Origin: Candidatus Baldrarchaeota archaeon
Lineage (GTDB): Archaea; Asgardarchaeota; Baldrarchaeia; Baldrarchaeales; DXJG01
Direction: 5' to 3'
Assembly (NCBI GenBank): GCA_019056805.1
Contig: DXJG01000010.1
Coordinates: 59,771-91,770, forward strand
Length of the DNA: 32,000 nt
Shown: piece after piece, positions 10,702 to 15,292 of the stretch
Numbering within the stretch: the stretch's first letter is position 1
Layout of the letters: the number at the start of each line of letters is the position of its first letter
Program-made: the position numbers and the translations under genes
Notes under the pieces: generated by a model
Databases searched by the model: none
Told to the model about the DNA's origin: nothing
Seen by the model: the letters and a program-made list of their open reading frames with translations, nothing else

Positions 10702-11895
10702 ATGGATGCTGTTAAAATTGTTGAAGATGTTTATTGGGTTGGTGCTATTGATTGGAATATTAGAGATTTTCACGGATATTCTACACATAGGGGGACGACT
10801 TACAATGCTTATTTGATTTTGGGTGAGAAGAACATCCTTATTGATACGGTGAAGAAAGGGTTTTTTGATGAGATGATTAGTAGGATTCAAAATGTCATTG
10901 AACCTAGGGATATTGATTATATTTTTTCTTTACATGTTGAAATGGATCATTCTGGTTCACTTCCCGAAATTATGGAGGTTGCAGATAAAGCTAAGGTTGT
11001 TGCTACTGAGAGATGTCAGAAAGGTTTGAGTTTACATTATCATGAGTGCAAAAAGGAGTTTGTTACAGTTAAGAATGGTGATACTCTTAAGTTTGGAGAT
11101 AAAACATTTACTTTTGTTGAGATTCCTATGCTTCATTGGCCAGATAACACTATGACATACATGCACGAGAGAAAGATTTTATTTTCCAGCGATGGATTTG
11201 GTCAGCACCTTGCGACTTCTCAAAGATTTAACGATGAGGTTCCTGAAGATATTGTGATGTATGAAGCTAGGAAGTATTATGCTAATATTCTTTTGAGGTA
11301 TGCAGATATTGCTACAAGGCGGATAAATGAAATTTTGAAGATGAATCTTGATATAAGGGTCATTGCTCCTGCTCACGGTGTTATATGGCATAGAGATCCG
11401 ACGAAGATTGTAGAATATTATCTTAAGTGGAGCTCTGGCGATACTGTGAAGAAGGCTTTGGTTGTTTATGATACTATGTGGGGTAGTACCGCTAAAATGG
11501 CGTTAGCGATTGCCGACGGGATTATGAGCAGGGGTGTTGAAGTTAAAGTTTTTAATTTAAGGGCTACGGATAGATCTGATGTAATGACAGAGGTTTTAGA
11601 TGCACGAGCCATTATTGTAGGTTCTCCGACCCTAAACAACAATATGTTTCCAACGGTTGCAGATTTTCTCACCTATATGAAAGGTTTTAGACCCAAGAAT
11701 AAAATTGGCGCAGCATTTGGTTCATATGGTTGGAGTGGTGAAGCTCCAAAGCAAATATTGGAAGAGCTTAAAGCTATGAAGTTTGATGTTGTAGAGTCTC
11801 CTTTAAGGGTTCAATATGTACCTAGTAGAGAAGAGCTAGAGAGCTGCTATAAATTTGGGAAAGAGATCGGTAAGAAAATTGTAGAAGCAGGATAA
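10702..11895 (+). CDS. fprA: Flavodiiron protein (A-type flavoprotein; O2/NO reductase family)
   Basis: GTTYNAYLI, diiron motif HVEMDHSGS, HWPD, SSDGFGQH and PAHG, then a flavodoxin domain (YDTMWGST, GSPTLNN, AFGSYGWSG). Confidence 0.95.
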   Translation: MDAVKIVEDVYWVGAIDWNIRDFHGYSTHRGTTYNAYLILGEKNILIDTVKKGFFDEMISRIQNVIEPRDIDYIFSLHVEMDHSGSLPEIMEVADKAKVVATERCQKGLSLHYHECKKEFVTVKNGDTLKFGDKTFTFVEIPMLHWPDNTMTYMHERKILFSSDGFGQHLATSQRFNDEVPEDIVMYEARKYYANILLRYADIATRRINEILKMNLDIRVIAPAHGVIWHRDPTKIVEYYLKWSSGDTVKKALVVYDTMWGSTAKMALAIADGIMSRGVEVKVFNLRATDRSDVMTEVLDARAIIVGSPTLNNNMFPTVADFLTYMKGFRPKNKIGAAFGSYGWSGEAPKQILEELKAMKFDVVESPLRVQYVPSREELESCYKFGKEIGKKIVEAG

Positions 11896-11967: not shown

Positions 11968-12132
11968 ATGAAAAAGTGGAGATGCACGATTTGTGGATAC
12001 ATATATGACCCTGAGACTGGCGACCCTGATAGTGGTATTTCTCCAGGAACACCTTTTGAAGAACTGCCTGATGATTGGGTTTGCCCAGAGTGCGGAGCTA
12101 CTAAGGACATGTTCGAGGAGCTAGAAGAGTAG
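11968..12132 (+). CDS. rub: Rubredoxin
   Basis: [15 protein letters not shown]...[20 protein letters not shown] at 11968 follows a ggaggggg RBS. Confidence 0.96.
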
Positions 12133-12182
12133 CGAAAAAGCGCGTTGTTAGAGATTTAGTATATAGTTGCGAAGACTTCGAC

Positions 12183-12205
12183 TTCCTTTTCTTTTATTTT
12201 TGTTT
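12183..12205 (+). terminator. Possible oligo-T archaeal terminator after fprA-rubredoxin
   Basis: T-tract ttccttttcttttatttttgttt about 50 nt after the rubredoxin stop. The whole gap is T-rich, so support is weak. Confidence 0.3.
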
Positions 12206-12368
12206 GCACTTTATAATTTAGCTTCATTGAATTACGTTGATTGTATGTTGTTTTTATTATTTATGTTAGGTTTTATTTTGTATTTGTGCTTGGAATCGTA
12301 TGGTTTTTATTTGGTTTGTGTTTCGTGTGGTTAATGTTTACGTTGTGTGTGATTTGGAGGTTTGAGGT

Positions 12369-13622
12369 ATGGCTTTAGTGCCTTATAGGACGTGCAAGTT
12401 GTTTGGGGCCATTAGGGTTGTGCTTGGTATTCGTGGATCGGTTGTTTTGGTTCATGGTCCTCGTGGCTGTGCTTATCATATTAGGTATTTGTTGGGTGTG
12501 CGTGGCCCATTTTCAGGGTTGATTTTTACTACTGAGATGAATGAGCGAGATGTTATTTTTGGTGCTGGGGATAAGTTGCGGAATGCGATTTTACAAGTTG
12601 ATAAGGAGTATTCTCCTGAGCTTATTGGTGTTTTAACATCTTGTGTAAGTAGTATTATTGGTGAAGATGTTGACTCAGTTATAAGGTCTGTTAAAGACGA
12701 TGTTAAGTCTAAGGTTATTTTTATTCCTGCCGGGGGATTTGAAGGTGATCATATTGATGGCTATAAAGAAGCGTTAAATGTGATTGTCAAAGAACTTGTT
12801 TCCGAACCTGAGAAGAAGCTGGAAGATTCGATTAATTTAGTTGGTTTATATCGTTTTGGCCCTGATGTTGAAGATCTTTTACAAGTTTTTTCAAAGCTTG
12901 GAATTAGTGTTAACGGTATATTAACGGTTGACTCTTCTTTAGATGCACTTCGAAAATTGTCCGAAGCTTCTTTAAATGTTATTATGTGTGAAGCTAGCGG
13001 TTTTGAAGCTGCTCATCTTATGAAGAAGTTTTATAACATTCCTTATGTTTATTCAACTTTACCAATCGGAATTACTTCTACAGAACGCTTTTTGTTAAAG
13101 GTTCTCGAAGGCTTAGGTAAAGAACCTAGGCTTCCAGATCCAGTTGAGAAAGAAAAGAGGTTAGCAATCGAGGAAATTAAGAAAGTTGCTGAGCATCTTA
13201 GGGGTTTAAGGGTTGCTATTATTAGTGGTTCTACTCGTGTTGCTCCCTTAACCGAATTTGTTTGGGAACTTGGAATGGAACCTGTTGTTGTTTCAATTGA
13301 TAGACTTGGAGAGGTTACTTTAGAACTGTTAGATATGGTTGTTAAAGAGCATTCTTTAAGTCCTAGGGTTTTGAAAGAACCTGATTTTCAAGAGGTTTTG
13401 GATGCTTTGAGGAAGGAGAAGGTTGATTTGATTTTGGGAGGTCTTTATGAGAGATCTCTTTCTTACGAGTTAAATGTACCTTTATATGATATTATGCATA
13501 GTGAAGAGCGAACTATGGGCTTTAAAAACGCTGTTACTCTTTCTAAAAATATTCTTTCAAATGTTAAAAATTGGAGACATGAAAGTCAGGTGGAGGGTTT
13601 TAGATGCAGATACGGCAAATAG
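12369..13622 (+). CDS. Nitrogenase component-1-type oxidoreductase, single NifD/NifE/CfbD-like subunit (group IV-like)
   Basis: RTCKLFGA (C9), HGPRGC (C34), TTEMNERDVIFG, TSCVSSIIGEDV (C92), GGFEGD, LNVIMC (C207) and VPLYDIMHS (H377). RBS ggaggtttgaggt upstream. Confidence 0.9.
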   Translation: MALVPYRTCKLFGAIRVVLGIRGSVVLVHGPRGCAYHIRYLLGVRGPFSGLIFTTEMNERDVIFGAGDKLRNAILQVDKEYSPELIGVLTSCVSSIIGEDVDSVIRSVKDDVKSKVIFIPAGGFEGDHIDGYKEALNVIVKELVSEPEKKLEDSINLVGLYRFGPDVEDLLQVFSKLGISVNGILTVDSSLDALRKLSEASLNVIMCEASGFEAAHLMKKFYNIPYVYSTLPIGITSTERFLLKVLEGLGKEPRLPDPVEKEKRLAIEEIKKVAEHLRGLRVAIISGSTRVAPLTEFVWELGMEPVVVSIDRLGEVTLELLDMVVKEHSLSPRVLKEPDFQEVLDALRKEKVDLILGGLYERSLSYELNVPLYDIMHSEERTMGFKNAVTLSKNILSNVKNWRHESQVEGFRCRYGK

Positions 13623-14422
13623 CTATTTACGGGAAAGGCGGAATTGGAAAATCCACAATAGCTGCCAATATTTCAGCCGCTTTAGCTGAGAAAGGCCTTA
13701 GAGTTATGTTGGTTGGATGCGATCCTAAAAGAGATTCCACGATGACTTTGGTTGGTGGAAAACAGTTGCCACCGTTGCTTGAACTTCTCAAAGATAAGAG
13801 GAAATTGTCGCTGGGTGAGGTTGTTTTTGAGGGGTTTAAAGGTGTTTTATGTGTTGAGGTTGGTGGCCCTGAGCCGGGTATTGGTTGTGCTGGAAGAGGT
13901 TTAATTCTCGCTTTTAGAACTCTTGAGGAGCTGGGAGCTTTTGAACAGCCATTGGATTTTATAATTTATGATGTTCCTGGAGATGTTGTTTGTGGTGGTT
14001 TTGCTGTTCCTATGCGTGAAGGTTTTGCAAGAGAGGTTTATATTGTGACCTCTGGGGAATATCTTTCTCTCTATGCAGCGAATAATATTTGTAGGGGTGT
14101 TAGGCGGATAAATGCTAGACTTGGTGGAATTATTTGTAATTCTCGAAGGGTTCCTCGCGAAAAAGAGATTGTTGAAATGTTTACACAGGCTGTTAAATCT
14201 AGGGTGGTTGGTTTTGTTCCTTGGGATCCTATTGTTCCAAAATGTGAACTTCAAGGTAAAACTGTTATTGAGGGTGCACCTGATTCGGAGCAAGCTGAAA
14301 TTTATCGAAACTTAGCTACTAATATATTGAAGAATAAGGAGCTTGTTGTTCCAAGCCCTATACAATTCACGGAACTTAGAGTTTTTATGAAAAAATTTAT
14401 GGGAGAATATGCCCGGGAGTGA
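13604..14422 (+). CDS. nifH: Nitrogenase iron-protein homolog (NifH/NflH/CfbC family)
   Basis: IAIYGKGGIGKST, GCDPKRDST, GGPEPGIGCAGRG, DVPGDVVCGGFAVPMR and YAANNI. Both 4Fe-4S cysteines are present. Overlaps the D-like gene by 19 nt. Confidence 0.93.
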   Translation: MQIRQIAIYGKGGIGKSTIAANISAALAEKGLRVMLVGCDPKRDSTMTLVGGKQLPPLLELLKDKRKLSLGEVVFEGFKGVLCVEVGGPEPGIGCAGRGLILAFRTLEELGAFEQPLDFIIYDVPGDVVCGGFAVPMREGFAREVYIVTSGEYLSLYAANNICRGVRRINARLGGIICNSRRVPREKEIVEMFTQAVKSRVVGFVPWDPIVPKCELQGKTVIEGAPDSEQAEIYRNLATNILKNKELVVPSPIQFTELRVFMKKFMGEYARE

Positions 14423-14428
14423 AATAAT

Positions 14429-15292
14429 ATGTCTTCTTTAGCTTCATATGTTCGTGTTCATCCATGTTTTGACGAAAAAGCCCATTTTACTTATGCTCGT
14501 ATCCATCTTCCAGTTGCTCCCAGATGTAATATTCGCTGTAATTATTGTGAACGAATAATTGATGGGAAATGTTTTGTGAATAGACCGGGTATAGCTTCAC
14601 AAATAGTTTCGCCGAAAGAAGCAGCTGAACTTATTAGAAAAGCTAAAAATATTTATTCATCTTTATCTGTGGTTGGTATAGCTGGTCCAGGAGAACCTTT
14701 AGCGAATCCTGAAACTTTTGAAACTTTAGAGTTAGTTCATGAAGAGTTTCCAGATCTTTTGAAATGTGTTGCTACAAATGGTTTACTATTACCTTTTTAT
14801 GTTTATAAGCTTTGGAAACTTGGTGTTAGAACATTAACGATTACTGTTAATGCTGTTAAACCCGAAGTGGGGCAATATGTATATTCTTGGATTAAAATTG
14901 ATAGAGATGTTTATTTTGGTTTTGAAGCTGCAAAAAGACTTATTGAGGCCCAGTTGAATGGAATTGAGAGGGCTGTTAAGTTTGGATTTGCTGTAAAGGT
15001 GAATACTGTTCTTATCCCTGGAATTAATGATGCTCATATCGTCCAAGTTGCTAGAGAAATGGCGGCCAGAGGAGTTTATATTCAAAATATTATTCCTTTA
15101 ATACCTCTTGGTGTTTTCAAAAATCTTCATCCACCTGAACCAGGTATGTTGGAAGCTGTTCGAAAAGAATGCTACAAATATATTAGGCAGTTTCATTTAT
15201 GCAAAATGTGTCGGGCAGATGCTCTTGGAGTCCCTGGCCAAGAAATAAGTATGTACGAGAAAAATTGTTGTTCTCGATCTTGTCATGGGTAG
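14429..15292 (+). CDS. nifB: NifB-family radical SAM protein, short form without NifX domain
   Basis: HPC, RIHLPVAPRCNIRCNYC, RPG, VVGIAGPGEPLAN, TITVN, KVNTVLIPGIND and CKMCRADALG. Starts 6 nt after the nifH-like stop. Confidence 0.93.
   Translation: MSSLASYVRVHPCFDEKAHFTYARIHLPVAPRCNIRCNYCERIIDGKCFVNRPGIASQIVSPKEAAELIRKAKNIYSSLSVVGIAGPGEPLANPETFETLELVHEEFPDLLKCVATNGLLLPFYVYKLWKLGVRTLTITVNAVKPEVGQYVYSWIKIDRDVYFGFEAAKRLIEAQLNGIERAVKFGFAVKVNTVLIPGINDAHIVQVAREMAARGVYIQNIIPLIPLGVFKNLHPPEPGMLEAVRKECYKYIRQFHLCKMCRADALGVPGQEISMYEKNCCSRSCHG

Follow-up and report, generated by a model that had tools for sequence, protein, structure and literature searches.

We analysed a 32,000-nucleotide stretch of a Candidatus Baldrarchaeota archaeon genome (contig DXJG01000010.1, positions 59,771 to 91,770 of the forward strand; hereafter the window), in which a subunit of the nitrogenase component-1 type, here called D-like, is encoded directly upstream of a NifH-like ATP-dependent reductase and a minimal NifB (Table 1). 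The three genes form a tight, co-transcriptionally packed operon (D-H-B), preceded by an AT-rich spacer that is presumably its promoter region. A GGAGG at 12356-12360 lies 8 nt ahead of the ATG of the D-like gene, for which an in-frame start further upstream is impossible, and Rfam returned no matches anywhere in the window. A sequence-only reading of this DNA had described the D-like product as a lone subunit of 417 residues without the N-terminal extension of NifD. Its translation agrees in length and leaves 8 residues ahead of the first cysteine, compared with 47-71 in NifD, 25-66 in NifE and 5-12 in CfbD, and the codon coordinates assigned to C9, C34, C92, C207 and H377 were arithmetically correct. 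The subunit is also alone in the genome as far as it was recovered: PF00148 (Oxidored_nitro), which spans residues 9-398 on model positions 1-397 (E 1.3e-95; 321 bits against a cut-off of 28.6), has this single match in the entire source genome (G000; 1.92 Mb, 91% complete), and neither a K-type nor an N-type paralogue was found there.

Among NCBIfam models the D-like subunit falls under every cut-off. The best match is nifE (TIGR01283; 202.5 bits against 505.1), with nifD (TIGR01282) reaching 122.8 bits against 653.55 and the CfbD model (TIGR03282) covering residues 23-141 only (77.5 bits against 268.4). Database labels on members of the family read 'nitrogenase component 1', 'NifE' or 'BchB', and Swiss-Prot holds no entry belonging to it. 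The NifH-like protein matches PF00142 (E 7.7e-99) and scores 398.8 bits with the CfbC model (cut-off 402) and 368.8 with the nifH model (cut-off 394); it possesses a Walker A motif (GKGGIGKS) together with Cys95 in CAGRG and Cys130 in VCGGFA, and is closer to the NifH-like protein that non-diazotrophic Methanobacteriales encode as a single gene (54-56% identity) than to bacterial NifH (48-49%). The third gene product scores 278.8 bits with the NCBIfam nifB model (TIGR01290; cut-off 343.65), aligning to positions 5-279 only of a model whose 441 positions include the NifX domain, a domain that archaeal NifB lacks (PMC13474568). It matches two archaeal NifB proteins of known structure, 6y1x (E 3.5e-83; entered under the name 'Radical SAM domain protein', SAM being S-adenosylmethionine) and 7bi7 (E 8.6e-81), and the CNIRCNYC radical-SAM motif (CxxxCxxC) and the C-terminal CxxC are in place in the alignment. 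Judged from its sequence, the third gene is a genuine minimal NifB.

Table 1. Features of the D-H-B locus, in window coordinates
Feature	Position	Strand	Remarks
AT-rich intergenic stretch 5' of the operon	12133..12368	+	236 nt; read from sequence
D-like subunit gene (P0001)	12369..13622	+	417 aa, stop-free; nitrogenase component-1 type
Cys9 codon	12393..12395	+	Equivalent to NifD Cys62 (P-cluster ligand); in predicted dimer interface
Cys34 codon	12468..12470	+	Equivalent to NifD Cys88, HGPxGC motif; in predicted dimer interface
Cys92 codon	12642..12644	+	Equivalent to NifD Cys154; in predicted dimer interface
Cys207 codon	12987..12989	+	Equivalent to NifD Cys275 and the NifE cofactor Cys; outside dimer interface
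His377 codon	13497..13499	+	Falls in the loop of NifD His442; register known to within one residue
NifH-like ATP-dependent reductase gene	13604..14422	+	Start overlaps stop of D-like gene by 19 nt
Minimal NifB gene	14429..15292	+	287 aa; radical SAM without NifX domain; begins 7 nt past stop of NifH-like gene

Putative cluster ligands and cofactor pocket, and predicted homodimer

The sequence-only reading had matched C9, C34 and C92 with the P-cluster cysteines of NifD, and had aligned C207 with alpha-Cys275 and, with a one-residue offset, H377 with alpha-His442, the two residues that ligate FeMo-co, the iron-molybdenum cofactor. In a MAFFT L-INS-i alignment with NifD, NifK, NifE and NifN encoded on annotated C. 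butyricum, N. vulgaris and S. meliloti plasmids, the three cysteines fell on C72, C98 and C164 of S. meliloti NifD, C207 on C283 and H377 on H450. Going by the motifs HCYRS and MHSWDY, these residues correspond to C62, C88, C154, C275 and H442 in A. vinelandii numbering. Searches of PDB chains with phmmer placed C207 on the corresponding Cys of NifE in holo-GmNifEN (9i0g) and on the HCxRS Cys of the alpha chain of 9spz, and H377 on the His of 9spz, with a gap of one residue. Profile comparison by HHalign, using a family profile and a five-sequence NifD profile, gave a probability of 100 (E 1.6e-51) and paired C207 with C283 and M376-H377 with M449-H450. The equivalence of C207 is thus borne out by four independent alignments (phmmer, MAFFT, HHalign and a larger MAFFT set, in which those of the P-cluster cysteines also hold), and that of H377 by the first three; because the two loops are unequal in length by a single residue, the register of the His is sure only to within one position. 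Within this uncertainty the D-like subunit possesses the NifD ligand set of three P-cluster cysteines, Cys275 and His442.

All five residues, including the C207 and H377 whose conservation had been singled out for checking, are invariant in 118 homologues extending to ~37% identity, aside from four N-terminally truncated rows that are gapped at C9; the Met preceding His377 is likewise invariant (118/118). In a set of 35 sequences with a mean column identity of 48%, the same five are among 52 invariant columns out of 417. The sole remaining cysteine of the subunit (C413) and seven of its nine histidines are not conserved. Conservation of the five putative ligands is stronger than chance.

We also mapped the predicted cofactor pocket by carrying the known environment of FeMo-co over via the S. 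meliloti sequence. Family-invariant equivalents were R290 (Arg359), D311 (Glu380) and E361 (Glu427), with G287 (Gly356) present in 34 of 35 sequences and S210 (Ser278) in most members; R290 is of the NifD type, at a position where NifE carries Lys. On the Mo/homocitrate and substrate side, the family has lost the Arg96 loop, varies at Gln191, carries Tyr in place of His195, as does the NifE of anaerobes, and does not conserve Lys426. Loss of the Arg96 loop, Tyr at position 195 and non-conservation of Lys426 suggest that the cofactor is likely a homocitrate-free, all-iron L-type cluster rather than FeMo-co proper. A cluster of this kind is known from MAR (methylthio-alkane reductase), which is a nitrogenase-like enzyme with a NifB homologue and whose homocitrate-free [Fe8S9C] cluster is bound by one Cys and one His (PMC12552129).

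An AlphaFold2 monomer model of the D-like subunit (pLDDT 88.6, pTM 0.87) matches nitrogenase alpha, beta, E and N chains as well as BchB chains, with TM scores of 0.79-0.85 normalised by query; confidence is lower (79) in residues 371-380, which contain the His377 loop. When two copies were modelled together, with a 4Fe-4S cluster riding along, the ipSAE was 0.78, compared with 0.00 for the best of three controls, at a mark attained by 20 of 30 proteins solved as same-chain pairs and 1 of 23 solved as single chains. Solved alpha-beta nitrogenase pairs are similar, however, and the outcome may owe more to this resemblance than to evidence of its own. At least 90% of contacts agree across three runs, with a partner pLDDT of at least 88. 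The predicted symmetric interface comprises residues 7-9, 30-41, 91-93, 96-97 and 123-127, including the three cysteines of each copy, in keeping with the earlier suggestion that a homodimer could supply six cysteines for a symmetric P-like cluster. C207 and H377 lie outside this interface, as expected of an intrasubunit site.

Distribution, association with NifB and phylogeny

The closest homologues (84-94% identity) occur in metagenome-assembled genomes (MAGs) labelled as Asgard, and among 301 sampled genomes of the phylum a close copy was identified in the window's own genus only. The next tier, at ~50% identity, consists of Archaeoglobi-type MAGs which keep the D-H-B grouping with B on the opposite strand. 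At 37-48% identity the gene stands alone, is common in Methanobacteriales and Methanomicrobiales, whether or not these have true nif genes, and has lineage-specific neighbours. As in the source genome, a single PF00148 match was found in six related carriers, namely G001-G005 (four Archaeoglobi-type genomes and one same-genus Asgard genome) and one Hydrothermarchaeota. Some Methanobacteriales carriers possess a complete nifDKEN set with the D-like gene located away from it, and in others the only other component-1 gene is CfbD. Five of the non-diazotrophic carriers of this order (G006, G009, G312, G315 and G321) encode exactly one NifH-like protein each; in G006 and G009 the presence of two component-1-type genes, CfbD and the D-like gene, was checked directly, so that one Fe protein would serve both.

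The earlier proposal that a second, cofactor-type metal site would explain the adjacent nifB finds support in the invariant C207 and H377, in the predicted pocket residues and in the co-occurrence of the two genes. NifB adjoins the D-like gene in both Asgard and Archaeoglobi copies, and is present in all eight McrC-negative carrier genomes (the source genome and seven further). Of 96 Archaeoglobi genomes, seven carry the D-like gene (in one case split in two open reading frames, ORFs) and all seven carry NifB, and the D-like gene is found in none of the 73 that lack NifB. The other 16 genomes with NifB have either different nitrogenase-type genes or no such gene, as would fit a use related to methyl-coenzyme M reductase (MCR). 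The nitrogenase-related complement of the source genome consists of one PF00148 gene, one strong NifH-like gene, one NifB and one NifX-like ORF elsewhere. The last encodes a NifX/NafY-type domain (PF02579, E 2.2e-24; G000:C3:29742-30005, minus strand) outside the window and far from the triad, and its product is a possible carrier of the L-cluster from NifB to the D-like protein.

Phylogenetic reconstruction was based on 56 sequences, comprising the family, four CfbD, archaeal and bacterial NifD, NifK, NifE and NifN, and four other methanogen nitrogen fixation-like (NFL) pairs (IQ-TREE, LG+C20+F+G4; quick and careful runs agree). All heteromeric paralogues formed one clade (ultrafast bootstrap 98, SH-aLRT 98), with the family and CfbD outside it. 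The maximum-likelihood tree resolves the family as a grade; this paraphyly is not meaningful, as a monophyly constraint gives a better likelihood. Approximately unbiased (AU) tests rejected placement of the family as sister to NifE alone (p 0.0004) and to NifD alone (p 2e-5). Together with the heteromeric clade, these rejections place the divergence of the family before the split of NifD and NifE. A clade uniting the family with all alpha-type sequences was not rejected (AU p 0.34), so that the family may have diverged either before the D/K duplication or early in the alpha lineage. Also set aside was a lone NifE of the kind reported from methanogens with nifHDKE only (PMC8809328), given that the gene lies outside nif clusters, that its genomes also encode a true NifE, and that the AU test goes against it.

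Candidate functions of the D-like protein

The reading towards which we lean, if only modestly, is that D-H-B encodes a homomeric, NifH-driven reductase, which acts on a small substrate and holds a P-type cluster at its interface along with an Fe8S9C L-type cofactor made by NifB. Two D-like copies would dimerise through the surface that in NifD contacts NifK, with six cysteines between them to ligate a single symmetric [8Fe-7S] cluster of the P type or, at a minimum, a [4Fe-4S] cluster. NifB would make the [Fe8S9C] L-type cluster, which each subunit would receive between Cys207 and His377, free of Mo and homocitrate as it is in MAR. A NifH-like dimer would dock above the interface cluster and, with each cycle of ATP hydrolysis, deliver one electron that passes by way of this cluster to the cofactor, where the small substrate would be reduced. 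Where the gene stands alone, in methanogens, the D-like subunit would draw on their housekeeping NifB and their one Fe protein of the CfbC type. Consistent with this scheme, no other known client of the L-cluster was identified in the source genome, McrA, McrC and Mmp7 not being found in its 91% complete assembly. A precedent is MAR itself (MarBHDK, group IV-C; 9fmg), which is likewise a nitrogenase-like enzyme that does not fix N2, with its own NifB homologue and the P-cluster cysteines. MAR is, however, a DK heterotetramer, whereas the D-like subunit has no K-type paralogue in its genome. The cofactor His of MAR (His429) is on Loop I, whereas the putative one of the D-like subunit aligns with the nitrogenase-type Loop II position (as compared with NifD, and with MarD by description only), and MAR has been verified only in bacteria, whereas the D-like family is archaeal.

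A number of observations weigh against an L-cluster-bearing reductase. In the larger MAFFT set His377 is displaced by one column, and among the buried parts of the model the loop that contains it has the lowest confidence. Most family members, those of methanogens, have neither NifH nor NifB adjacent, and no conserved neighbour pointing to a substrate was found in the loci compared, those with the triad sharing only D, H and B. The co-occurrence counts overstate their support because related genomes are not independent, and the absences from the source genome are not proven because it is 91% complete. Furthermore, the NifE of anaerobes is a scaffold and not an enzyme, yet possesses the Cys, the loop His and Tyr195.

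This last observation is shared with the alternative that the family is a NifEN-like homodimeric scaffold or carrier, which takes up NifB-co and holds, matures or passes on the L-cluster without being a catalyst; we consider this unlikely, albeit the most serious of the competing readings. By score NifE is the closest relative, the best family models and solved relatives being NifE and NifEN (TIGR01283; holo-GmNifEN 9i0g), and it shares with the D-like subunit its fold, the three interface cysteines, the cofactor Cys and the NifH and NifB partners, to which anaerobe-type NifE adds the His in the same loop and the Tyr at the His195 position. The family is also frequent in methanogens, where NifB is essential and L-clusters occur in the MCR activation complex (PMC12176620; bioRxiv 10.1101/2023.10.20.563283), so that the acceptor there could be the McrC/Mmp7 sites of this complex. 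Identity to NifE is, however, 27-29%, there is no NifN partner, and R290 takes the place of the NifE Lys. Contrary to NifE, the D-like subunit, with its 8 residues before the first Cys, lacks the N-terminal region and with it the maturase hallmark Cys, a surface L-cluster site at position 48 in NifD numbering (PMC8890362). McrC was not found in eight carriers, nor McrA, Mmp7 or a second PF00148 gene in the source genome, leaving no known acceptor. A grouping of the family with the NifE clade was rejected as above, and the family is not universal in methanogens, of which 25 of 61 Methanobacteriales genomes gave no match to the nifE model at E 1e-30.

A reductase in the manner of CfbD or of dark-operative protochlorophyllide oxidoreductase (DPOR), acting on an organic substrate such as a tetrapyrrole with an interface [4Fe-4S] cluster only, strikes us as improbable. 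In such an enzyme C207 and H377 would bind substrate or be structural, and NifB would be adjacent for another reason. CfbD is similarly an archaeal, homomeric catalytic subunit with a NifH-like partner and an equally short N-terminus, the Fe protein of the window is CfbC-like and scores almost at the CfbC cut-off, and the single NifH-like gene of the non-diazotrophic Methanobacteriales must also serve CfbD. At one Archaeoglobi-type locus only, a CobD/CbiB gene of cobalamin biosynthesis (L010:2544-3437, plus strand) lies directly 5' of the D-like gene. CfbD, however, has two interface cysteines, with Ser at the first position, and a [4Fe-4S] cluster, where the D-like subunit has three cysteines; it lacks the equivalents of Cys275 and His442 that are invariant in the family, and its model matches the subunit partially and far below cut-off. 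It is also independent of NifB and travels with MCR/F430 genes. NifB co-occurs strictly with the D-like gene in our sample, whereas DPOR, chlorophyllide oxidoreductase (COR), CfbCD and group VI are reported to be NifB-independent (PMC13474568). Least probable of all, and in our estimation very unlikely, is a working minimal nitrogenase, that is, a homodimer with an L-type cofactor which fixes N2 at a low rate in an organism without NifDK. The D-like subunit does share with NifD all five cluster ligands and the equivalents of Ser278, Gly356, Arg359, Glu380 (as Asp) and Glu427, both NifH and NifB are present, and L-cluster-bound NifEN with NifH has been reported to reduce N2 (PMC11168457, PMC12047441). 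It differs from NifD in having no NifK, no N-terminal extension, and the altered Arg96, Gln191, His195 and Lys426 positions described above, and neither PII (NifI) nor further nif genes were found nearby. In Methanobacteriales, moreover, the gene lies outside nif clusters and alongside a complete nifDKEN, and is therefore no substitute for it.

Ancestry and accompanying genes

Previous work has recognised no homomer in the nitrogenase superfamily besides CfbD (PMC12176620, PMC12552129), has taken CfbD2 as the present-day representative of a homomeric ancestor (PMC12552129), and has recorded only scattered Asgard/TACK members (PMC12176620). A 2026 review likewise regards CfbCD as the simplest NFL system, and notes that most group IV sequences are without a His442 equivalent (PMC13474568). 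Our literature search found no description of the D-like family, with the proviso that coverage was incomplete and an earlier description elsewhere is possible. The D-like protein looks like an undescribed one-subunit nitrogenase relative from near the root of the family. Judged by gene content its own family is homomeric, and none of the predicted nitrogenase ligands is missing from it. As it travels with NifB in archaea without nitrogenase or MCR, it would represent a third kind of NifB client. Methanogens have been noted to possess additional nitrogenase-like proteins without a known function (bioRxiv 10.1101/2023.10.20.563283), for which the family is a candidate. With 417 residues and one gene, the probably thermostable protein could offer a small platform for the building and use of P-type and L/M-type clusters.

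More tentatively, and with greater doubt than attaches to the reductase itself, the family may be a homomeric lineage that has survived from a split preceding, or coinciding with, the D/K duplication behind all heterotetrameric nitrogenases, maturases and nitrogenase-like enzymes, and that already had a P-type cluster and a NifB-made cofactor on a Cys and a Loop II His. If this is true, CfbD is not the sole homomeric member of the superfamily and the ancestral cofactor ligation was that of nitrogenase. Ancestral reconstruction could not infer the His ligand, with MarD and NifD using different loops (PMC12552129). The nature of the nitrogenase ancestor would then be testable on an extant protein, beyond reconstructions alone.

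Several further features were identified around the genes discussed here. In the window, a rubredoxin gene (54 aa, with CTIC and CPEC pairs; 11968-12132, plus strand) lies between a flavodiiron protein (FDP) gene (10702-11895) and the D-H-B operon; the two were not found together at the same-genus locus L009, and constitute the classic FDP-rubredoxin pair of O2/NO detoxification, directly 5' of an oxygen-sensitive system. Clustering of ORFs across 80 loci revealed no neighbour in more than 15 of them, the larger clusters besides D being antisense ORFs within D. The most frequent real neighbour was a DUF63/PF01889 (AliA_AliB) membrane protein, present at 14 of the 80 loci, for example at an Archaeoglobi-type locus (L013:11070-11852, minus strand) and in Methanothermobacter (L002:4530-5321, plus strand). 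Adjoining NifB, a PP-loop ATPase (LarE-like, with weak NAD_synthase, QueC and DUF7411 matches) was identified at two triad loci of the Archaeoglobi type, L013:9720-10496 and L014:8824-9609, both on the minus strand; its gene is absent from the window. The split Archaeoglobi copy (G386:C13:1334-2504) consists of two overlapping ORFs covering profile positions 3-147 and 148-389, with NifB ~0.8 kb downstream; the split stems from a frameshift, from decay of the copy or from faulty assembly. Also identified, at four Methanobacteriales loci (L117, L118, L109 and L110), was a separate nitrogenase-like pair of 512-557 and 452-457 aa with three interface cysteines in each subunit. The larger subunit keeps the Cys275 and Arg359 equivalents and has Arg at the place of His442, and the pair is another uncharacterised NFL clade in methanogens.

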